A DNA stretch of 64,000 nucleotides from a virus. The position numbers were made by a program, and so were the translations under genes. How positions within the stretch are numbered: the first letter of the stretch is position 1; each line of letters begins with the position of its first letter. Under the pieces are notes generated by a model. It was given only the letters and a program-made list of their open reading frames with translations. It made no database searches and was not told where the DNA came from. The DNA is taken from IMG/VR virus record IMGVR_UViG_3300025869_000011, positions 1 to 64,000 of that record. One strand, 5' to 3'. Positions 3,686 through 56,900 of this stretch are shown in pieces.

Positions 3686-4258
3686 ATGGATAACACATTC
3701 TACAAACAAATCGGAGACTACAAAACATCAAAAGACCCAGTATTAGGTAACCTAAGATTGGTCGTCCACCTTGCCAAAAAATACCAGGGTATGGGACTAT
3801 CATTAGAGGATCTAATCCACGAAGGTACAATTGGATTATGCCAAGCAAGAGACAAATGGAACCCTGCAAAATCAAACGGTGCAAAATTCTCCACACACGC
3901 ATCATGGTGGATCAAGGCAACAATCCGCCAAGCACTAAACAACAAAAGCCGTACCATCCGCGTACCTGCTCATAAAGCCCACCTTACCGAGGAGGCTCCT
4001 AAAGTATCTGTATTGGATGCTACTTACCAAGGTTCATATCAACCTCATATTGAATCTGCTCATAATGAATCACATCTGAATCATACTATTGCAGGTTTAC
4101 TTACCAAACTAAAACCTAAGCAACAGGAAATCATCAAAATGAAATTTGGTATTGGTTGCCATGAAATGAAAACTTCTGAAATTGCTAAAGAGTTGGGATT
4201 AACTGTCCAAGCAGTAAATGGAAATATCCGTAACGCAATTAAAACTATGAAAGGTTAA
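3686..4258 (+). CDS. Compact sigma-70 family RNA polymerase sigma factor
   Basis: Region 2 NLRLVVHLAKKYQGMGLSLEDLIHEG...KFSTHASWWIK...SRTIRVP; region 4 HTH. Confidence 0.93.
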   Translation: MDNTFYKQIGDYKTSKDPVLGNLRLVVHLAKKYQGMGLSLEDLIHEGTIGLCQARDKWNPAKSNGAKFSTHASWWIKATIRQALNNKSRTIRVPAHKAHLTEEAPKVSVLDATYQGSYQPHIESAHNESHLNHTIAGLLTKLKPKQQEIIKMKFGIGCHEMKTSEIAKELGLTVQAVNGNIRNAIKTMKG

Positions 4259-36939: not shown

Positions 36940-38589
36940 ATGGCAGGTTTTACTGATAGAAGAGGACCCTTAAGTACAGGTAATCCAGTAAGGAAGATTT
37001 TAAAGGATCTTTCTAATTTAGGCATGGCTTACGATGATATGATCATTCGTAATTCTCGTGCTGTAGGTTTTACAGAAAACCAAATGGGTTATACGTTTAA
37101 TCCAATGGGATCTGATTCCGATGATATGTATAGCGCCTTTGCTGCATTATCATTAACTGATACTACCATGAAAAAGAATATCTCTATCTTTGATAGGGAT
37201 TATGAAAGAAAAAGAGATCAGCTTAGAGAATATGCAGTACAAGATGAAATAGAAGATATCTTAGATGTAATTACTGATGAAGCGATTGTATTTGATGAAT
37301 CTAATTATATGGCTTATGCAGATTTTAATGGTCATATAGCATCATCAATAGAAGATGAAATTGGAGATGTGTATAATAACTTATATAATTATTTTGGATT
37401 TAATGATTCTATTTCTCCGTGGAATTATTTTAGAAAATGGTTAGTAGATGGGTTTTTGGCATTTGAAATAGTTTATAATGATAAGCAAACTGAAATTATT
37501 GGATTTAAAGAATTGGATCCTATTTCATTAATGCCTGGTCTTGATACAGATACAGGTAAAAAACAATGGGTGCAATATCAAGGCCAAGGTGCAAAAGAGA
37601 GAAAGCTATGGGATTCTCAAATTATTTACTTATCATATTCTTCAATTAATTCTCCTATGAGAATATCTTATGTGGAGCGATTAATAAGATCGTTTAATCT
37701 TTTAAGAATTATGGAAACAACCAGAATCATCTGGGCTGTTTCTAATGCTTCATTTAAAACTCAATTTATTATACCTGTAGGTGGTAAATCTAAAACCAGA
37801 GCAAAGCAGTCTCTGGCGCAATTAATGAATTCATATAGAGAAGTTGTTGATTTTAATCAAGAGAGCGGTGAAATTGTAACCAACGGAAAATCAATGATGC
37901 CTTTCAATAAGGAATATTGGTTACCATCAAAAGACGGTGAATCCCCAGAGATTAGTACAATCGGTGGAGATGGACCAGATCTTGGTGATACAGAATCTCT
38001 TAAGTATTTTGCTGATAGACTAAAAATGGCTTCTAAGATTCCTTTTTCGCGATTTGATAAAGAAGGCGGTAATACTTATGATATGGATGCTAGTGGAATG
38101 TTAAGAGATGAAATTAAATTTTCTAAATTTATTGACCGTCTTAGATCTATATTCCAAGAAGTACTTGTAAAACCGATGTATCTTCAAATGTGTCTTAATC
38201 ACCCTGAATTAAAAAATGATGTTTCATTTAAATCTGGTTTAGGACTTAAATTTGTTAAAGATAATGTGTTTGAGGAAATGAAAGAAATGGAGTTACAAAC
38301 AAAAAGAGTAGACTTCATTGGAAATCTTAAAACACAGTTAAGTACAATGACTGCAGAAATGGAGGAAATTCCATACTTCGATTTAGGATTCCTTGTTAAG
38401 AGGTACGGTGGCTTTACACGAGAAGATTTAAAAGCTAATCAGAGGGCTAAGGAAAGAACCGATTTAGAAAAGGAGGGGTATAAGGAAGAAGATATTGAAA
38501 AGATCCTTTTAGGTGCTGATAAGGCAGATTTTGAACCGGAAAAGAATAGTAATGGAATTGATGATGATCCATTAGCAGACCTAGGATAA
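36940..38589 (+). CDS. Portal protein gp20
   Basis: FRKWLVDG, ELDP, SYVER, EYWLP, SKIPFSRF, RDEIKFSKFI.RLR. Confidence 0.93.
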   Translation: MAGFTDRRGPLSTGNPVRKILKDLSNLGMAYDDMIIRNSRAVGFTENQMGYTFNPMGSDSDDMYSAFAALSLTDTTMKKNISIFDRDYERKRDQLREYAVQDEIEDILDVITDEAIVFDESNYMAYADFNGHIASSIEDEIGDVYNNLYNYFGFNDSISPWNYFRKWLVDGFLAFEIVYNDKQTEIIGFKELDPISLMPGLDTDTGKKQWVQYQGQGAKERKLWDSQIIYLSYSSINSPMRISYVERLIRSFNLLRIMETTRIIWAVSNASFKTQFIIPVGGKSKTRAKQSLAQLMNSYREVVDFNQESGEIVTNGKSMMPFNKEYWLPSKDGESPEISTIGGDGPDLGDTESLKYFADRLKMASKIPFSRFDKEGGNTYDMDASGMLRDEIKFSKFIDRLRSIFQEVLVKPMYLQMCLNHPELKNDVSFKSGLGLKFVKDNVFEEMKEMELQTKRVDFIGNLKTQLSTMTAEMEEIPYFDLGFLVKRYGGFTREDLKANQRAKERTDLEKEGYKEEDIEKILLGADKADFEPEKNSNGIDDDPLADLG

Positions 38590-38635: not shown

Positions 38636-40438
38636 ATGTCAGGAAAAAAATTATTGATTCTTGAAAGACAGAAATCAAATTTAGATATAACCACCGGTGA
38701 AGACGGTTCAGTTGTATTAGAAGGTGTATTTACCGAGTTTGATGTTAAGAACAAGAACAACAGGATTTACGAGGAAAAAGAAGTAATGCCTCATATCAAT
38801 GAATTACAAGAAAAGGTTAAAACCAATAAACTTCTAGGTGAATTAGATCACCCTAAAGATTTTGATGTTAGTTTGGCTAATGTCTCTCATGTTGTTGAAT
38901 CATTAGATTATGATAAGACTAAAAAACAAGTTATTGGAAAAATCAGATTACTAAATACCTCTAAAGGTAAAGAAGCACAAGCTCTTATTAAAGATGGTAT
39001 TCCTTTACATATTTCAAGTAGAGCTGCTGGTACAGTAGATGAAAATGGTAAAGTTAAAATTAAAAAGTTTTTTACTTATGACTTGGTTGCAGATCCTGGC
39101 TTTGAAAATGCCGAGTTATCAAGAGTAAACGAATCTTTTGGTTTAAGTAATGATGATGGTATATTAATCTATGAAATGGAAGAAACTGAAAATAACGATA
39201 ATAAAAAAGATCTAACGATGGAAAATAATAATTTTGTAACTGTTGAAGATTTTCAAAAGTATACTGAATATGTATCTGGTGTTTTAAGTAATGTTAAAGA
39301 ATCTACTAATTCTAATAATGATGAGGTAATGGAAAAACTTATTAAATACACTGAGCATATTGCAGAGAAAGTAAATCAGGTTACTGATTATGCTGAATAC
39401 TTATCAGAGAATCTTGATAAAAATATTTCATACTCTGACTATTTAGCAGAGAATGTAAATTCAATTAAAGATTATGCTAGTTATTTAGCTGAAGAGCTTG
39501 ATGGTAGTATTCAATATGCTGAGCATGTTGCTGAGATGGCTGACAAAGGAATTGCATATTCTAATTATGTTGCTGAAAACTTAGAGAAGAGTATTGATTA
39601 TTCTGAATATGTAGCCGAGAAGGTTGATCAGAATATTGCTTATTCTGAATATCTTGGTGAAAATGTAGATAAGAGTATTAAATATACTGAATACGTTGCA
39701 GAAAATGTAAATTCTACTAACGGTGAAAGTATTAATGAAGATACTGTTAATGAATACGGTATGAAAGAAAGTTCTATGCCAACAATAGAAGAAGTTTCAA
39801 AATGTATGGATGAAGGAATGACTTATGAGCAAGTTTGTGAAAAGTATCCTGATGCAGACAAAGCGAAATTAAAAGAAATGTGTGAATCGTGTGGAAAGAC
39901 TCATGAGGCTGAAGATTACAAAGAATCTATTGAGGAGAAATTAAATAAACTTATTTCTGCTGCTGAAACTAAAAATGTATCTGAAATGCATTTTATGAAT
40001 TTCTTAGGAGAATCAAAAAAGAATCAGTTTAATGCTTTACCTGAAAGTAAGCAAGCTATGATTGTAGAATCAATGAATTCACAACCTATTATGTCAACTA
40101 TACAAGCTGAAAATATTTGGGAATCTAATTTCATTGAAAAGAAAAGAGAAATAAATGTAATTGATGATATGCCAGAAAGATTCCGTGGAAAATGGAATAA
40201 CCTTTCTGAATCAAGACAACAACAAATTATATCTGAATCAAGATTCCACCCAGTTGGTAATCAATACGGAATTAATAATTTCTGGGCAACAAGAGATCTA
40301 AGAGATACTCAAATTGCTACTGAATCTATTAATGAAAGTAAAACTGCTGCTGAGGCTGCTAATAAAAAAGAACCATTAGTTAATGAATCTTTTGCTGCTG
40401 ACCTTATTAGTAAAGTTAAGTTTAATTTAGGTAAATAA
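38636..40438 (+). CDS. Prohead protease gp21 fused to a scaffold-like coiled-coil region
   Basis: KNKNNRIY, GELDHP, ISSRAAG, YDLVADPGF; then 14-aa repeats. Confidence 0.88.
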   Translation: MSGKKLLILERQKSNLDITTGEDGSVVLEGVFTEFDVKNKNNRIYEEKEVMPHINELQEKVKTNKLLGELDHPKDFDVSLANVSHVVESLDYDKTKKQVIGKIRLLNTSKGKEAQALIKDGIPLHISSRAAGTVDENGKVKIKKFFTYDLVADPGFENAELSRVNESFGLSNDDGILIYEMEETENNDNKKDLTMENNNFVTVEDFQKYTEYVSGVLSNVKESTNSNNDEVMEKLIKYTEHIAEKVNQVTDYAEYLSENLDKNISYSDYLAENVNSIKDYASYLAEELDGSIQYAEHVAEMADKGIAYSNYVAENLEKSIDYSEYVAEKVDQNIAYSEYLGENVDKSIKYTEYVAENVNSTNGESINEDTVNEYGMKESSMPTIEEVSKCMDEGMTYEQVCEKYPDADKAKLKEMCESCGKTHEAEDYKESIEEKLNKLISAAETKNVSEMHFMNFLGESKKNQFNALPESKQAMIVESMNSQPIMSTIQAENIWESNFIEKKREINVIDDMPERFRGKWNNLSESRQQQIISESRFHPVGNQYGINNFWATRDLRDTQIATESINESKTAAEAANKKEPLVNESFAADLISKVKFNLGK

Positions 40439-40545: not shown

Positions 40546-42282
40546 ATGTACGCAAATCAATTAATCAACGAGTCCGAGGTTCAAAAGACCTGGGGACCTA
40601 TCATTGAGGAAGCTACTGGTATCACTGAAAAGTCTAAGTTATCTTGGATGTCTAAGTACTGCCATTATCACAACCTTAATGAAAGTGTATATAATACTGT
40701 ACACTTAAATCCAAATATGAATGTACCAGGTATGGATGCGGTAACTTTACCAGGCAACCCTACTACAATGAATGCATTCTCTGGACAAACTGCTGGATCT
40801 GGTGACAGACCTTTTTCTTTGCTTCCACTTGCAATGCAAGTTGCTGCTCAGACTGTAGGTTTAGACTTAGTACCTGTAGTACCAATGCAAGGCCCAATGG
40901 GAATTCTTACTTACCTAGACTTTGTCTATGGTGGTGGTTTAACTAACCAAGCAGGTGGTGTAGATGGAAATTCTGCTCCATTATTAATTAAAGTACCTGT
41001 AACATTAGGTTCTGGTATTGCTGCTTTAGCAGTAAACGATGTAAACTATGTTGGTACTGGTACTAATGGTTCTTATGAACTTACTTTCGTAGGTGCATCA
41101 AGAATTGACGGATATCCAATCTTCCGTGTAAGAGGTAAATCTACTGACGCAGTAGAAGGTACTGATCCTTACAGACAAGGTGAAGAAGGTTACGAACCAA
41201 TTTATACTGCTATCGTAGGTGGTGGTGCTCCAACAGATTTATATTCTAATGATACATTAGCTGCATCTATTGGTACTTTTGGTGGAAGCCCTGAATATGT
41301 AAAAGCTTTAGAAGACCATATTACTGGTTTCTCAGGTAACGCATTTGAGGCTAACAACCCTGCTACCGGTGCACCTGCATTTGGTTCAGAAGATATCAAT
41401 GGTGTAGATCCATACCAAAGAGGTGTTGGAGAATCAACTCCAGATAACCTTTTAGGTCTTTCATTGTTCAATAAATCAGTTGCTGCTAAAACTTATCAAG
41501 TTGCTGCCGCTGTAACAAGAGAACAAGTTCAGGATTTAAAACAATTCGGAATCGACGCAGTTGCTCAAGTAGAAGCTGTATTGGTAAATGAGTTAACTCA
41601 ATCTATCAACAAATACATCTTGGATAGAATCTTCAGAAATGGAGCTACTAACGCAAATAATGTATTTAGTGTGGACGCATTAAACTTATCTGCTTCGTTT
41701 GTTACTGCTGCTCCTGGTGTTACTGCAATCTCTTTAGGTGCTGGTAATTCTAGTAACGCAAACATCTCGTTAAACACTGCTGATACTGTAGTTGGTTCAG
41801 GTGGTGAAACACAAGGATCATTACAACGTAGGTTGTATACTAAAGTTCTTGCTGCTTCTAACTTGATCGCAACGAGAGGAAGAAGAGGACCTGCAACGTT
41901 TGCAGTATGTTCTGGGGAAATTGCTACGGCACTACAGGATATCGCAGGTTTCGTACCTTACCCACTATCAAATACAATCAACCAAGCTGGTGGATCTTTA
42001 TATCCAATCGGTTCTTTGGCTGGTGTAACTATTTATGTTGATCCAAACATGGCTTGGACTGACTATAGAGTTGCTGTAGGTAGAAAAGGTGATGGTAATT
42101 CTCCTGGTTTAGTATTCATGCCTTACTTAATGGCTGAATCTGTTGAAACAATCGCAGAAGGAACTATGGCTCCTAAAATCGCGGTTAAATCTAGATTCGC
42201 TTTAGTAGATGCTGGATTCCACCCAGAAACTATGTACTACACATTAGGATTTAACTTTGGTACTGGTGTATCAATTATCTAA
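40546..42282 (+). CDS. Major capsid protein gp23
   Basis: W.PIIE, LVPVVPMQGP, QDLK..GIDA, YVDP, FMPY, P.I..KSRF. Confidence 0.93.
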   Translation: MYANQLINESEVQKTWGPIIEEATGITEKSKLSWMSKYCHYHNLNESVYNTVHLNPNMNVPGMDAVTLPGNPTTMNAFSGQTAGSGDRPFSLLPLAMQVAAQTVGLDLVPVVPMQGPMGILTYLDFVYGGGLTNQAGGVDGNSAPLLIKVPVTLGSGIAALAVNDVNYVGTGTNGSYELTFVGASRIDGYPIFRVRGKSTDAVEGTDPYRQGEEGYEPIYTAIVGGGAPTDLYSNDTLAASIGTFGGSPEYVKALEDHITGFSGNAFEANNPATGAPAFGSEDINGVDPYQRGVGESTPDNLLGLSLFNKSVAAKTYQVAAAVTREQVQDLKQFGIDAVAQVEAVLVNELTQSINKYILDRIFRNGATNANNVFSVDALNLSASFVTAAPGVTAISLGAGNSSNANISLNTADTVVGSGGETQGSLQRRLYTKVLAASNLIATRGRRGPATFAVCSGEIATALQDIAGFVPYPLSNTINQAGGSLYPIGSLAGVTIYVDPNMAWTDYRVAVGRKGDGNSPGLVFMPYLMAESVETIAEGTMAPKIAVKSRFALVDAGFHPETMYYTLGFNFGTGVSII

Positions 42283-42307
42283 TCCTATTTAGGTATATGA
42301 CTTTAAG

Positions 42308-42336
42308 AAAGGTTCGTCGAAAGGCGGACCTTTTTT
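42308..42336 (+). terminator. Intrinsic terminator after capsid gene
   Basis: aaaggttcgtc-gaaa-ggcggacctttttt (GNRA loop). Confidence 0.85.
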
Positions 42337-42376
42337 GTTTTGTATAAGTCTAATATATAAAAAAATAAAACTAATT

Positions 42377-43351
42377 ATGAAAAGAGTATTATCATATAAT
42401 GAATTCGTTAATGAATCTAAAAATATTAAGGAAGGTATTACAGATATCAAAGGGATTATGAGTAATCCTATTAAATATAAAAAGATTAAGAATAATGCTA
42501 AAGTTTATCAAAAGACTAAAGTACAACAAGCATTAAATAACTTAGATTACGAAAAGAAGAAAGCTGCTAGTAAAGGTGACGGTAATTCAAACGTTCTTAA
42601 AGTTGCTAACGCTACAAAAAATGCTGCACTTAAAAATCAGTCAACTGCAATAGCGGCAAGAATGAACGATCTTGCTACAACAGATCCTCTTAAGAAGGTA
42701 GTTACTCTTGCAACAAGTAAAGCTAATTTAGCAGCAGCAGAAACGGCACTTAAAGCTGCTGATGCTGAAGAATCAAAAGCACTTAAGATTAGAATTAAAA
42801 GATTAGCAGGACAAGCGGCCGATGCACAAAAAGCACTTAAAGATTATGAATCTGATTCAAAAAAGGATACTGCAGATAATGAAACACCGTCTGCTGAAGA
42901 TAATCAAAAGGCTGCCACTGCAGAGAAAGCTAAATTAGATAAAGAAAAGGCTGAAAGGGAAAAGGAAGCAGCTAAAGCAAACAAAAAAGCAGATACAAAA
43001 GATGAACCAAAAGTAGATGATAAAGCCGAAGCTAAGATTGCTCAACTAGAAAATAGTATTAAGTCACAAGATAAAATACAAGCTGATGCAACTAAGAATA
43101 TAGAAAAATTAAAGGGTGAATTAAAAATAGCACAAGATAATAAAAATACAGGTAAATCATCACAAGCTGAAGTGGATGCTATCTCAGCTAAAATACAACA
43201 AGAAACTGAAGATAAGAAGGCTGCTAAAGCTGAAGAAGATAAACTTAAAAAACAATTAAAACCAATAGCAGATAAACAATATGGAGAATCTCATACTCCT
43301 TTAGAAGAATCTGTTGCTGATAAGTTTAGAAGATTATCAGGAAAACTGTAA
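42377..43351 (+). CDS. Lys/Ala-rich coiled-coil protein, probable internal head protein
   Basis: N-terminal MKRVLSYNEFVNE resembles the T4 capsid-targeting sequence; late-type promoter at 42351. Confidence 0.65.
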   Translation: MKRVLSYNEFVNESKNIKEGITDIKGIMSNPIKYKKIKNNAKVYQKTKVQQALNNLDYEKKKAASKGDGNSNVLKVANATKNAALKNQSTAIAARMNDLATTDPLKKVVTLATSKANLAAAETALKAADAEESKALKIRIKRLAGQAADAQKALKDYESDSKKDTADNETPSAEDNQKAATAEKAKLDKEKAEREKEAAKANKKADTKDEPKVDDKAEAKIAQLENSIKSQDKIQADATKNIEKLKGELKIAQDNKNTGKSSQAEVDAISAKIQQETEDKKAAKAEEDKLKKQLKPIADKQYGESHTPLEESVADKFRRLSGKL

Positions 43352-43364
43352 AAAACTATTAACT

Positions 43365-43430
43365 ATGAAATGTAATTGTAAAACCTGTGGTTGCGGTAAA
43401 TCATGTGATTGTACCTGTTGTAACTGCTAA
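43365..43430 (+). CDS. Metallothionein-like micropeptide MKCNCKTCGCGKSCDCTCCNC
   Basis: Translated manually: 21 aa, 9 Cys; A-rich leader; fills the intergenic gap. Confidence 0.75.
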   Translation: MKCNCKTCGCGKSCDCTCCNC

Positions 43431-43441
43431 AATAAATCATT

Positions 43442-43933
43442 ATGTATAAAGTTCGTAAAATAAACTTTGGTTGGTATAAAAGGAGGCATGGTATTCTATT
43501 AGAAAATCTGCCTCCTTTAAAGCAAAAACTTTTATTGGAACATAATCATATGAAATGGTTAGATTCTGATATACAAGCCTTTGAGATTATATTTAAAGTT
43601 GAGGATATGAATGAGCATGAAAAGAATCCTAATCGTATACTTTGGAATCCTTTTAGAGAAACGTTTACAAACATTAAAGAATTAGAAAAAGACTCGGATC
43701 TCGTTGACTGGAATTGTGGAATATGTAAAGCTGGAATTAAATCAAGAATGGATTCTAGGAAGGTTGAAAATTTTGTTTGTAGTAAATGCGTGGAGTCTCA
43801 TAACTCACGGAACAGCAGAGTTGACCAAAGAATAATAGATTCCTCTGTTAAATTTATGAAGCACTGTAAATCCTTACTAAAAGGTGAACAGAGGGAGTTT
43901 ATGACTTACATAAGAAGATCATCAAAAGCGTAA
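43442..43933 (+). CDS. Hypothetical protein with CxxC...CxxC zinc ribbon
   Basis: CGIC...CSKC. Confidence 0.7.
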   Translation: MYKVRKINFGWYKRRHGILLENLPPLKQKLLLEHNHMKWLDSDIQAFEIIFKVEDMNEHEKNPNRILWNPFRETFTNIKELEKDSDLVDWNCGICKAGIKSRMDSRKVENFVCSKCVESHNSRNSRVDQRIIDSSVKFMKHCKSLLKGEQREFMTYIRRSSKA

Positions 43934-44710
43934 AGCTTCTTCTATAGTTATTTTTTTAAATGCATTTAAATTACTAGATGGGCATGCATTTAAAATTTCT
44001 ATTCCACTTCCATTAAGATCACGTTTAAGCAAATCAAACGCAGGTATAAATTGATCTTTATAAATATTAACACCTGTAGTATTTACTGGATAGCCATCGT
44101 GGAAGTGACTTTCCTTTCCTACATTACCCATATCATATCCTAATAAGATAATTCTTTTAGCACCTAAATGAATTGCTAAATTAATTGCAGCATAACCACT
44201 ATTTCCACCGTGTGCTATTTCATCTTTTTGTTTTGACAATCCATTCTTACTTCCTCTTTTTAAAAGTTTAATACTTTCGTTATGATCTTTATTAGGTGTA
44301 ATAGTATACTTCAAACCACTATAAGACATTATTTCTTTTCTAAGCCATCTGAATACTCTAGAATCTGTCCAATATAAAGCTGTTGGGTTATTATAATATT
44401 TTATAGCTTTATTAATAGCTATAGTTTTTTTATTAGATAATAAATTCCACTTAAATCCTTTTAGTGAAGGGCCTCCACCAATAATGTAAACAGTTTCCCC
44501 AGCCCACAACGGTGTAATAGTATGATATTTTAAATCTTTCTTTAGTGGTGTCTTTAGTCTAACTGGATTAGGATTTACTTTAGTAGGTACTTTATGGTGA
44601 GAATTAGTGTTTATAATTTTACCTCTCTTTACATTAGTCTTAATGTTCTTAGAAGATTCAGCTGGTACGGATATATTTACCACCTTTCTAATTCGTCGGC
44701 CCTTTCTCAT
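43922..44710 (-). CDS. Maf/DUF115 (CstII-like fold) putative glycosyltransferase
   Basis: IIGGGPSL, IAIN, NSGYAAINLAIHLGAKRIILLGYDM; the only credible minus-strand gene. Confidence 0.7.
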   Translation of the reverse strand: MRKGRRIRKVVNISVPAESSKNIKTNVKRGKIINTNSHHKVPTKVNPNPVRLKTPLKKDLKYHTITPLWAGETVYIIGGGPSLKGFKWNLLSNKKTIAINKAIKYYNNPTALYWTDSRVFRWLRKEIMSYSGLKYTITPNKDHNESIKLLKRGSKNGLSKQKDEIAHGGNSGYAAINLAIHLGAKRIILLGYDMGNVGKESHFHDGYPVNTTGVNIYKDQFIPAFDLLKRDLNGSGIEILNACPSSNLNAFKKITIEEALRF

Positions 44711-44785: not shown

Positions 44786-45748
44786 ATGAAGAATATCCAA
44801 AACATACTATTAACAGAGAAGTACAGGCCACAATCCTTAGATGATTTGATTACACCACAGAGAGTTGGTGAGAAATTAAGTAAAGGAGTTTATCAACATT
44901 TACTATTACATGGCAGTCCAGGTACCGGTAAAACTTCTGCTGCTAAGGCTTTAGTGAAACATTTTAAGCATCCTTATTTATACATTAATGCATCAACCGA
45001 TACATCAGTAGATGTTGTAAGAAATAGAATTACTGACTTTTGTGCTAATCGTTCTATAATGGATGAACCAGGAAAAATGAAGGTAATTATACTTGATGAG
45101 ATTGATGGTGTATCTGATCAATTCTTTAAAGCGTTAAGGGCTACAATGGATCAGTTTGCTGTTAATGCAAGATTCGTTGCAACATGTAATTATATCAATA
45201 AAGTACCAGATCCAATTCAATCTAGGTTTGAAATGATTGATTTTGATTTTTCTAAAGAAGAAGAAACTGAAATAATGAAAAGTTACATTATGAGGATTTT
45301 TCAAATCTGTAAAGAAGAAGGTATTGGTATCGATAAACATGCAGCTGTTGAATTAGTAAAAAGAAAATTTCCTGATTTAAGAAACATGTTAAATCAATTA
45401 CAAGGATTTAAATCACAAGGCGTAGAAACTATAACTGTTGAAAACATTAAACAATTTAGTTCTGTGTATAGAGATATTTACGACCTCGTAATCGATGGAG
45501 AAGATCCTGTAAAAAATTATCAATACATGTTATCTAATTATGCAAATAGAACTGATGATGTTTTATCTTCATTAGGTGCGGAGTTTATAGATTTTATAAA
45601 ACAAGATAGGCAATCATACACTCAATTTATTCCACAGATAATTGTAACAGTTGCAAAATATCAAGCACAAAGACAACAAGTAATAGATCCTGCAGTATCA
45701 ATGCTTGCTTGTATTTATGAACTGCAAACAATAGTTAATGGGGCATGA
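44786..45748 (+). CDS. Clamp loader large subunit gp44 (RFC-like)
   Basis: EKYRP, GSPGTGKT, INAS, LDEID, PIQSR. Confidence 0.94.
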   Translation: MKNIQNILLTEKYRPQSLDDLITPQRVGEKLSKGVYQHLLLHGSPGTGKTSAAKALVKHFKHPYLYINASTDTSVDVVRNRITDFCANRSIMDEPGKMKVIILDEIDGVSDQFFKALRATMDQFAVNARFVATCNYINKVPDPIQSRFEMIDFDFSKEEETEIMKSYIMRIFQICKEEGIGIDKHAAVELVKRKFPDLRNMLNQLQGFKSQGVETITVENIKQFSSVYRDIYDLVIDGEDPVKNYQYMLSNYANRTDDVLSSLGAEFIDFIKQDRQSYTQFIPQIIVTVAKYQAQRQQVIDPAVSMLACIYELQTIVNGA

Positions 45749-51850: not shown

Positions 51851-52109
51851 TTACATTCTTACACAGGAAATAAAACAAACAGAAAGAAAAACTGAAGGTG
51901 GTTTAATTATTCCTGGTGAAAAGTATAATAGGCAAGCTTTAGTAGTTGAAGTAGCAAATGACCTTGAAATAAAGAAAGGTGATAAAATTATAAAAACAAT
52001 AGGCAAGGGTACTGAATATACTTTTGAAGGTAATAAGTTTGAAATCCTTCACATAAATCATATTCTTGCTGTTATAGAAGAAAATGGCACAGAAACCACA
52101 AGCACCTAG
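51834..52109 (+). CDS. GroES-like co-chaperonin
   Basis: KTEGGLIIPG, KKGDKI, G.EY, ILAVIE. Confidence 0.85.
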   Translation: MKMKNDYILTQEIKQTERKTEGGLIIPGEKYNRQALVVEVANDLEIKKGDKIIKTIGKGTEYTFEGNKFEILHINHILAVIEENGTETTST

Positions 52110-53955: not shown

Positions 53956-56900
53956 ATGGCACTAGATCCGAAAATCGCTTCGATTAAAGCAGCAGGGACA
54001 TACCGATTTGAGTTTGACAAATCTCAAGTAGTTAGTATTCCTGCTAATCAGACAAGGTTAATTGTCGGTTTCTCTAAAACAGGACCTTTTAATACTCCGG
54101 TATTCATTCCTGACACCGCATTCTTCAAACAAGTATATGGTGATATTGACAGAAACTTAGAAAGAAAGGATTCATTTTTCCATAGAAGCTGTTTAGCAGC
54201 ATTGGAAAGAGGACCGATTCTTGCACTTAACTTATTAAACTTAACTGCTACCGATAAGGTAGAGTATATTAAATTTGGTGCGGCCTCCACACCAGAAGGT
54301 GGTACATACCAAGATAATGCAGGTGCATTAGGTGAATACCAAAAATTCTATAACAGAGATAAATTCTTTTATCCTGACTCAGATTCATTCTTAAGTAATG
54401 TAAATGCTGACACGCAGAATTTTAATTCAGGTACTACCAATGATTTATTAGATATGGTAAACTTAGGACAAAATCCGTTATCAGTCATAGTAAGAAAAGC
54501 ATCAGCTGCTAATTCTACTGGATTCAATGTAACTGTTGAAGAATGGTATGGAGCTGCAAATGTACCAGGATTCTTAAATAAAGATAGTTTAGTATCTGAC
54601 TTCTTGGTAGATGTATTTGTAATCAATGGAAACTTTGGTGGAGACTTTGGTTCTGCAACGCCTTATGAAAGATTTGCGGCAGATCCAATATTCCAAACAT
54701 ATTTTGATAAAACACAAGGTTTAAAAAGAAGAGTATTTGATGCTGATTCAACAGATACAAAAATCGCTGAATTTTTTAATGAATCAGAAGTTCAGGTAAT
54801 TGCAACTTATACTGCTTCACTTATTCCTAACTTTACTGACTTATTAGGTAATAACCTTTTCGTAGAAAAAGTTATAAATGCTGATACTGCATCTACTGGA
54901 TTATTTGTCGCTGTGAATGAAGATCTTTTTGATGGTGATACATTAATTGATGGTGTTGCAGGTGGTATTGATATGATAGGTCATAACCTTGAATATACTC
55001 AATCTACATCATTACAAGATGATGTTAATTTCTTATCATACAGTAGTTCTATTGTATCTGATTTAAATTATGCAGGTAATGGCATTACACCAACATCAGT
55101 TGATAAAAGTACAAGTGATCTTCTTTCTGTTACGGATTTAACTTCTGGTGATGTTCAAATACAGATACAAGGTTCTGTAGGATCTGCATTATTTGATGGA
55201 TTCTCAAGTATGACCGCAAACACTGCTACTGTTGTAGGTAGTTATATTGAAGCTATTGATCTTAATGGCGATACAGTATATGTACCTGTAATATCTCACC
55301 AAGTAGTTGGTAATACAGTAACTGTTGTTTTATCTGGCTCTAATGCTACTATTGATTCAACTTGTTTCGGTACAAGCTTTGATTACATAAATGAAACTGA
55401 CTTTGGTTTTGTAACCGATGAGGCCCCATTAACTAATCCGAATAATTCTAATATTATAGGTTCTTATGGTTCATCATTATATAGTCAATTCTCAAATGGA
55501 ACTTTAACTGATGGTGATGAAGCAGTATTTTTAGATGGTGGAACTCAATATCAATCGTTCTTAGTATTCAATGCTGTTGATTATGGATTTATTCATACTG
55601 CATCACCAACTACTACTGCAACAACAATTGCAATTTCAGATTTAGATTATGCTCTACCATCTGTTCAAGTAACTCCTTATCAGGAAGATGCATTTAATAA
55701 TATTACACCACATGCTGAATTTACTTTAGGTAGTGCAACTGGTACATTTTTAAATTCTGACGCTGTTGCATATCCTATAGGTACATTAGGTATCCAAACA
55801 TTAAAAGGTGCAAATAATGTTTCTATAGATATTATATCAGATTCTGTTACTGAACCTGGATTAAAGCCTAACCAAGTATTAATCGCATCTGATAATCCTG
55901 ATGCTGCCGATGTTATCGTTGGTAATTATTTAGTACATTTTGAAGGTGATGCAACAACTCCACATTCAAGGTTAACGAGAATGAATGTTGTACAAGGTGG
56001 ATTAACCAATGCTGAGTTTAGTACTATTCCTGCAGGAAAAACTGCATTATTAGTAACATGCCAAAGCGAAATTGCAACATCAACCGCAGCAGGTGTAGTT
56101 AAAGTAGAATTATATTATCCTATTGATGCATGGGTAGATTACTTAAATGTATTTACATTGGATGGATTTAAATTAACTGCTAGTCATGTACCTAACGGAA
56201 CAAACGATAGACAAAATGAAATCTTAAACGGTACTTTAAATGGAACTAATTTATTTAAGGCATTAACTGACAGAGATGTAATTAACTTTAGATATATTGT
56301 AGATACATTCGGAAACGGTATTGAAAGTGGATCTAAATCAATCTATACAGTATTAGCTTCTACAAGGAAAAACGCGTTTGCAATATTAAATGCACCATCT
56401 GCTAAGGACTTCAAAAATAATTCCGATCCTTCGTTTAAAGATCTAACTGGAAGCTTATCATCTAGATTTATTTCTACTGGTGGTGATCTTTCAAAGAATC
56501 CTACGGTAAGATACTCATTACCATCTCAAACACAAGGTGCAAGTTGGGGAGCATTCTATTATCCGTTTATTACTGTTAGGGATTTAGGTAGAAATATAAA
56601 TGTTGTACCAGCTGCATATGTTTCAAACAACTTTATTGCAAAATATGAAAACGCTTTACCGTGGTCATTAGTTGCAGGAGTTCGTAGAGGTGTTGTCGGT
56701 GGAACTGGCGTTGTAGGATTAGAAATCAATCTTGGAAAAGAGGACAGAGAATACTTAGAACCATTTGGATTAAATCCAATTGTATTCCAAAGTGGAACTG
56801 GGCCAACAATCTTTGCAAATAAAACTGCACAGCAGACTACAAAATCTGCATTAAGTTCTATTAACAGTAGAGAGGTTGTAATTTATATCCAAGATGGAAT

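Follow-up and report, generated by a model that had tools for sequence, protein, structure and literature searches.

A 21-codon open reading frame (ORF) encoding nine cysteines was confirmed, from its pattern of substitution in related viruses, as a genuine and conserved gene of phages, with its cysteines as the feature under selection. The ORF is very probably a real translated gene, as judged by sequence comparison, and we favour, with modest confidence, the view that its product is a cytoplasmic metal-thiolate (metallothionein-like) peptide. The DNA analyzed, hereafter the window, is the stretch of 64,000 nucleotides covering positions 1 to 64,000 of the IMG/VR virus record IMGVR_UViG_3300025869_000011.

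Identification of the nine-cysteine peptide gene

The peptide gene and the features that surround it in the window are as follows.

42304..42337, + strand: intrinsic-terminator-like hairpin after the major capsid gene, marking the start of the unit with the peptide gene
42377..43351, + strand: upstream K/E/A-rich coiled-coil-like gene, 324 amino acids from its ATG (ORF listed from a TTG at 42335)
43352..43364, + strand: leader of the peptide gene, 13 nt from the upstream stop to the ATG, A-rich, with no Shine-Dalgarno core
43365..43430, + strand: nine-cysteine peptide gene, ATG at 43365, 21 codons, TAA at 43428-43430
43442..43933, + strand: downstream gene for a 163-amino-acid CxxC...CxxC protein, starting 11 nt after the peptide stop
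43922..44710, - strand: convergent MptE-like / sialyltransferase-like gene, closing the unit that holds the peptide gene

The peptide has the skeleton MKC-x-C-xx-C-x-C-xxx-C-x-C-x-CC-x-C-stop, in which the cysteines are arranged as CxC, CC and CxxC motifs, and its mass is about 2.2 kDa. Its length was identical in all 166 copies found. Cysteine occupies nine of the 21 residues (43%) in the peptide compared with 0.9% in the long ORFs of the window, and aromatic residues are absent from the window peptide. Analysis of the 64-kb window revealed this to be the sole 21-codon stretch with at least eight cysteine codons; in 200 simulated versions of the window (first-order Markov), no such stretch arose.

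Of the window's 52 long ORFs, just one has a Shine-Dalgarno core, and A accounts for 52-73% at positions -8 to -16 before these ORFs. Since A-rich leaders lacking a Shine-Dalgarno core are the local norm (51 of the 52 long ORFs), the 13-nt leader of the peptide gene is normal for its genome. Searches of protein collections found none of five exact peptide sequences among 15 billion proteins, and a phmmer search with a 38-amino-acid extended frame gave no matches among 1.84 billion representatives. An earlier note on this DNA had described an ORF of 21 amino acids and nine cysteines at this place on the + strand, with a typical A-rich leader and no aromatic residues, that ORF calling had missed. 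Reading of the window confirmed the ORF exactly as described, the leader is of the common local style, the lack of aromatic residues extends to the relatives of the peptide (see below), and the collection searches agree that the gene has been missed.

The phage and the probable transcription unit of the peptide gene

The window encodes a portal protein at 36940, a prohead protease at 38636, a Gp23-type major capsid protein at 40546-42282, a gp44-type clamp loader at 44786, a large terminase at 52084 and a tail sheath protein at 53956; its GC content is about 31%, and no tRNA genes were found in it. The phage is a T4-like myovirus. It is probably a jumbo phage, because the whole record of 77.9 kb was rated by CheckV as just about 28% complete. 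The nearest GenBank phages by capsid protein are an uncultured 462-kb megaphage (58%), the Prevotella Lak phages (39%) and Tenacibaculum phages (33%). Leaders that are A-rich and lack Shine-Dalgarno sequences are expected in Bacteroidota hosts, and as the leaders of the window are of this kind the host is probably a member of the Bacteroidota.

The 3.2-kb stretch at 41500-44700 of the window was also looked up in sequencing runs, where 99-100% of its sampled words were found in 14 DNA runs from at least 11 studies. Marine plankton and a sponge metagenome are among the material of these studies, which date from 2014-2025. The window belongs to a phage population that is cosmopolitan, very uniform and common.

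As no terminator-like site was found between 42377 and 43933, the gene at 42377, the peptide gene and the gene at 43442 probably form one late transcript. The gene at 42377-43351, which is syntenic across the clade A loci, is probably the first gene of the transcription unit holding the peptide gene. In contigs of four metatranscriptome runs the flanking genes were covered and positions 43212-43425 were uncovered; one of the metatranscriptome contigs belongs to a relative without the peptide gene.

The 324-amino-acid protein encoded upstream gave no family match. Its length and sequence differ greatly among relatives (36-96% identity), and a C-terminal motif, ES-[VI]-[SA]-x-KF-[RA]-RL, is retained among them. 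This Lys/Glu/Ala-rich protein may be a scaffold or head-decoration protein. The gene at 43922-44710 on the - strand, which is MptE-like (DUF115) / alpha-2,3-sialyltransferase-like (phrog_4603, E 2e-40), lies in a head and replication module that otherwise runs in one direction.

The 163-amino-acid protein encoded downstream (43442-43933) contains a CxxC...CxxC arrangement and has a weak treble-clef match (PF14311, E 0.043), so that a zinc ribbon or treble clef is plausible from its sequence. The earlier note had placed the peptide gene next to a zinc-ribbon gene: the two genes do adjoin, at a distance of 11 nt, and the zinc-ribbon identity of the neighbour goes no further than plausible. A functional tie between the two genes is not supported, as half of the close relatives keep the 163-amino-acid gene without the peptide gene and most other copies of the peptide gene lie in unrelated neighbourhoods. 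Because the zinc-ribbon-like gene is retained with or without the peptide gene, the adjacency of the two is incidental.

Conservation of amino acids in the peptide family

An exact scan for the cysteine skeleton, with ATG-AAR at the start and TAA at the end, found the peptide in at least 113 IMG/VR contigs. Together with a set derived from neighbouring genes, the scan yielded a total of 82 distinct DNA sequences and 71 distinct peptides. The neighbour-derived set was drawn from 160 related loci that were gathered via the neighbouring genes and not via the peptide, and is therefore unbiased by the cysteine pattern. At the syntenic place in these loci the 21-codon ORF was either present or wholly missing, and the unbiased set comprised 19 unique DNA versions of the gene.

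Among these 19 versions, two of the 18 first and second positions of the nine cysteine codons were variable, both owing to one histidine variant, and eight of the nine third positions were variable, by T/C only (TGT/TGC). In the ten non-cysteine codons, first and second positions were variable at 16 of 20 places and third positions at nine of ten. The substitution pattern is thus codon-periodic in the + frame; none of the 19 versions is open in frame +2, +3 or -2. Cysteine conservation and synonymous bias in related phage loci, which the earlier note had suggested looking for, were both found in this unbiased set. Methionine and lysine before the first cysteine and a stop directly after the ninth were present in all 166 motif copies, a fixity that is by construction in the pattern-derived copies and not so in the 19 unbiased sequences. 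An alternative in-frame start was missing in 84 of 88 contexts.

The tolerance of single cysteine positions was analyzed by scans in which one cysteine at a time was freed, its codon being opened to any codon starting with A, C or G (including those of the one-step neighbours arginine, serine and glycine). Across 2.9 million IMG/VR contigs, no contig with a replacement was found when Cys1, Cys4 or Cys8 was freed. The sole replacement found when Cys6 was freed was histidine (CAC), carried by a single sequence that recurs unchanged in two IMG/VR and three JGI metagenome contigs; the histidine codon is three base changes away from TGT. Histidine is the usual alternative ligand for Zn or Cu and is unable to form a disulfide. 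The change from Cys6 to histidine represents one evolutionary event and points to a ligand role, in a way that is suggestive rather than decisive.

Analysis of the 71 peptide variants revealed phenylalanine, tyrosine or tryptophan at none of 710 non-cysteine variable positions, and histidine occurs twice. These three aromatic amino acids make up 10% of the window's own proteins, and aromatics abound in out-of-frame cysteine-dense junk of the same loci. Most residues at the ten variable positions are asparagine, glycine, serine, threonine, lysine, aspartic acid and glutamic acid, with some valine and isoleucine that is concentrated at position 7, and the net charge ranges from -2 to +3. Overall, the family shows selection on the nine cysteines plus a small, hydrophilic, non-aromatic filling.

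Distribution, gain and loss of the peptide gene

The peptide gene is carried in at least five unrelated gene neighbourhoods. A total of 79 copies occur in neighbourhoods without detectable similarity to the genes of the window, in phages that have only a terminase in common with it (24-35% identity) and that range in GC content from 28% to 46%. The gene is tightly packed, often with gaps of -4 to a few nt, and in some relatives its ATG overlaps the stop of the gene before it. It usually shares its strand with the upstream gene, and the downstream gene is convergent in some cases. Since the gene occurs in at least five unrelated neighbourhoods and needs no particular neighbour, the peptide works alone or with host factors.

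Presence and absence of the gene were mapped on a tree of the downstream 163-amino-acid protein with 51 rows. At least seven gains or losses were found on this tree, at least four of them forced by well-supported branches, and sister contigs at a distance of 0.013 differ in having the gene. The peptide gene is dispensable and accessory, and is often gained and lost in marine phages.

Traces of deletion and insertion were observed at several loci. In L064 and L072 (about 3960-4000) deletion scars are present, where the last two codons with the stop (AAC TGT TAA) and the 11-nt spacer remain. In L070, L071, L075 and L076 the upstream stop is joined straight to the spacer, which represents a clean deletion of the peptide gene, and the junction looks as if recombined between similar ...CTGTAA and ...CTGTTAA ends. 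Between the peptide gene and the 163-amino-acid CxxC gene, L058, L062 and L063 (2974-4000) contain an extra gene of about 1 kb, and L080 (2176-4000) contains about 1.8 kb of extra sequence. The junction between the two genes is therefore an insertion hot spot.

An exact-pattern search of 401 Bacteroidia and 401 Flavobacteriaceae sampled genomes gave no matches in the genomes searched. A loose cysteine-pattern scan of genome contigs returned matches of which all 80 inspected were (TGC)n/(TGT)n microsatellites or out-of-frame poly-cysteine runs. Searches of GenBank phages gave chance matches only with blastn and nothing with tblastn, the latter probably owing to low-complexity masking, and no cultured phage with the peptide gene was identified in them.

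Comparison with known metallothioneins

The window peptide had no match in Pfam at E<=10. Among the 71 variants, 15 matched PF01439 (Metallothio_2), with a best E of 0.52, and no other family; PF02069 was matched neither by the window peptide nor by any of the 71 variants. The sole match of the family profile to the PDB was wheat Ec-1 metallothionein (2KAK, E 6.7). These metallothionein matches are not significant and may be compositional only, and no significant match was found to any curated metallothionein family (Pfam Metallothio*, PDB chains). The peptide nevertheless shows every sequence-level feature of the operational metallothionein definition, namely small size, cysteine motifs and no aromatic residues, and it equals the animal beta-domain metallothionein in having nine cysteines as potential ligands. 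The description of the peptide as metallothionein-like, given in the earlier note, thus holds for its size, cysteine content, lack of aromatics and lack of a signal or leader, and fails for statistical homology to any family.

The animal beta-type metallothionein domain is an M(II)3Cys9 cluster. As generally known, such domains share with the peptide nine cysteines, richness in CxC, absence of aromatics and a small hydrophilic filling, which in the peptide consists of asparagine, glycine, serine, threonine, lysine and aspartic acid with few valines or isoleucines. However, the nine cysteines of the animal domain are spread over about 30 residues and form half of a two-domain protein, whereas those of the peptide lie within 19 residues and stand alone. 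Plant metallothioneins (PF01439, wheat Ec-1 2KAK) and the peptide have in common local runs of the C-x-C-G-x-x-C-x-C-x-x-C type. Unlike the 21-amino-acid peptide, the plant proteins have 45-85 amino acids and long cysteine-free linkers or histidine ligands, and the E-values given above are not evidence of homology.

Fungal copper metallothioneins of the Neurospora crassa / Agaricus type have about 25 amino acids and seven cysteines and form a Cu(I) cluster. From general knowledge of these proteins, they and the peptide are alike in being single-domain, similar in size and dominated by CxC. Cu(I) is a credible ligand because of this resemblance. The fungal type differs in its seven cysteines, against nine in the phage peptide, in its spacing and in its eukaryotic origin, the two being compared by description only. 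Bacterial metallothioneins (SmtA/BmtA with a zinc-finger-like fold; mycobacterial MymT) have 50-56 amino acids and a defined fold. With the bacterial side again taken from general knowledge, they resemble the peptide in being small, cysteine-rich and part of the prokaryotic world, and histidine can be a ligand in them. SmtA has aromatic residues and a defined fold, whereas the peptide lacks aromatics and has 21 amino acids. To our knowledge, nine cysteines in 19 residues is denser than in any metallothionein domain, and for this reason any cluster geometry for the peptide is a guess. A full-text literature search found no phage or viral metallothionein and no relevant cysteine-rich small phage gene. 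The family, phage-borne, minimal and metallothionein-like, appears to be undescribed in the literature.

Proposed function and alternatives

A metal-thiolate cluster is the best fit to the peptide, whose thiols are odd in number (nine, in 19 residues), accept no replacement but histidine and are set in a small polar filling. In the proposed mechanism, the ORF would be translated independently in the infected cell, and the 21-amino-acid product would remain in the reducing host cytoplasm, a location suggested by the lack of a leader or signal peptide. The nine cysteine thiolates would wrap a small metal-thiolate cluster in the manner of a metallothionein, which by analogy might hold about three Zn(II)/Cd(II) ions on nine cysteines or several Cu(I) ions. 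The effect of the peptide during infection would be to buffer a soft metal in the cytoplasm of the host, or to sequester it. Any one specific role, whether Zn supply, Cu detoxification or starving host enzymes of metal, is rather unlikely when taken singly. In the phage contexts examined, no gene for metal handling was seen beside the peptide gene, which counts against this reading.

Metal binding by the peptide would mean that phages have a trace-metal handling gene of their own, one whose product is far smaller than the metallothioneins described so far and which escapes all standard gene callers. A broader reading, which in our opinion falls a little short of probable, is that the peptide is the shortest metallothionein known and its family the first to be virus-encoded, with large marine phages capturing or buffering Cu or Zn within the cells they infect. 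The same reading would make it a widespread mobile accessory gene, its hosts probably Bacteroidota and other AT-rich ones, with a link to marine trace-metal cycling; were it true, phage infection would be tied to trace-metal cycling in the sea. Genes of about 60 nt under strong selection are, as this case shows, systematically overlooked in viral metagenomes.

A different purpose for the peptide is suggested by the gene itself, which is small, accessory, often gained and lost, and located at variable cassette-like sites, as many phage anti-host genes are. The peptide might bind a host protein and inhibit or redirect it, in takeover or anti-defence, with metal handling not its purpose and one or two structural metal ions possibly stiffening it. 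Its net charge, which is not conserved, is in keeping with this, as it indicates that the peptide is not a nucleic-acid binder. However, the non-cysteine positions of the 71 variants are highly variable and hydrophilic, leaving little conserved surface besides the thiols for protein recognition, and the skeleton is unchanged in phages whose terminase is just 24-35% identical to that of the window. We therefore consider a host-directed micro-protein unlikely.

It is quite unlikely, in our assessment, that the peptide is a sacrificial or enzyme-coupled thiol pool and not a metal store, acting as a scavenger of oxidants or electrophiles or as the substrate or partner of a flavoprotein oxidoreductase. 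The observation behind this possibility is a second phage clade (33 loci), in which the peptide gene lies upstream of an FAD/NAD(P) oxidoreductase of the Pyr_redox_2 type with about 430 amino acids, the distance being mostly about 116-190 nt and, with intervening genes, as much as about 1.8 kb. In contrast, an oxidoreductase of this type is lacking near the peptide gene in the window's clade and in several other contexts, and within the second clade a terminator separates the two genes. Upon gene insertion, the block of hairpin, terminator and promoter moves with the oxidoreductase gene and not with the peptide gene, and a link between the peptide and the enzyme was rejected because this conserved block travels with the enzyme gene. 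Among named proteins, the oxidoreductase is closest to the 'NAD(FAD)-utilizing dehydrogenases' that Campylobacter phages encode and not to disulfide reductases, and the change from cysteine to histidine suits a ligand role better than a redox role.

The earlier note had offered a RiPP precursor or a disulfide-rich peptide as its alternative to a metallothionein. Short cysteine-rich precursors do occur in several RiPP classes. Against this alternative, just two residues precede the first cysteine in all 166 copies, which leaves no leader or signal for a RiPP or a secreted product. No neighbouring enzyme is common to the five or more contexts and none is a known maturase, and no Radical_SAM or YcaO domain was found in the 77.9-kb record, about 28% complete. 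Nine cysteines cannot all pair, and the odd count together with the absence of a signal or leader argues for cytoplasmic thiols instead of a disulfide knot. The alternative is thus disfavoured, and we judge a RiPP precursor or secreted disulfide-rich peptide highly unlikely.

It is exceedingly unlikely that the stretch has no protein role and acts instead as an RNA or DNA element, as an antisense gene or as a regulatory leader ORF rich in cysteine codons. As a regulatory leader it would have a downstream gene that varies by context and in distance (about 3 nt to more than 100 nt) and that in some cases is convergent; for attenuation, the next gene of the window follows after 11 nt without a terminator between them. 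Shuffled sequences fold as well as the RNA does (z -0.19), there is no Rfam match, and the codon-periodic substitutions in the + frame speak against any non-protein element. Of the 19 unbiased copies, 18 have an open antisense frame -3, but the antisense ORF of the window at this place is aromatic-rich junk whose start codon is not conserved in relatives. A frameshift fusion to the upstream gene was rejected, as upstream genes and spacings vary by context while the 'MK' and the ATG are fixed.

Two further elements were observed that do not belong to the peptide gene. Upstream of the Pyr_redox_2 gene of about 430 amino acids, a hairpin is present (L162:826-940) with the invariant loop GATTCATAGCC and a covarying stem of 5-6 bp. 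The same hairpin occurs in L230, L243, L219, L254, L169, L184 and about 25 more loci, with at least six different stem pairs, and a GC-rich intrinsic terminator and a TATATT box come after it. Rfam gave no match in the window, in three clade-B loci or for this hairpin. In the window, an ORF of 74 amino acids at 1665-1889 on the + strand has a hydrophobic N-terminal stretch and eight cysteines in a CxxC...C...CC-x-C-x-C run, and is possibly another small cysteine-rich phage protein.
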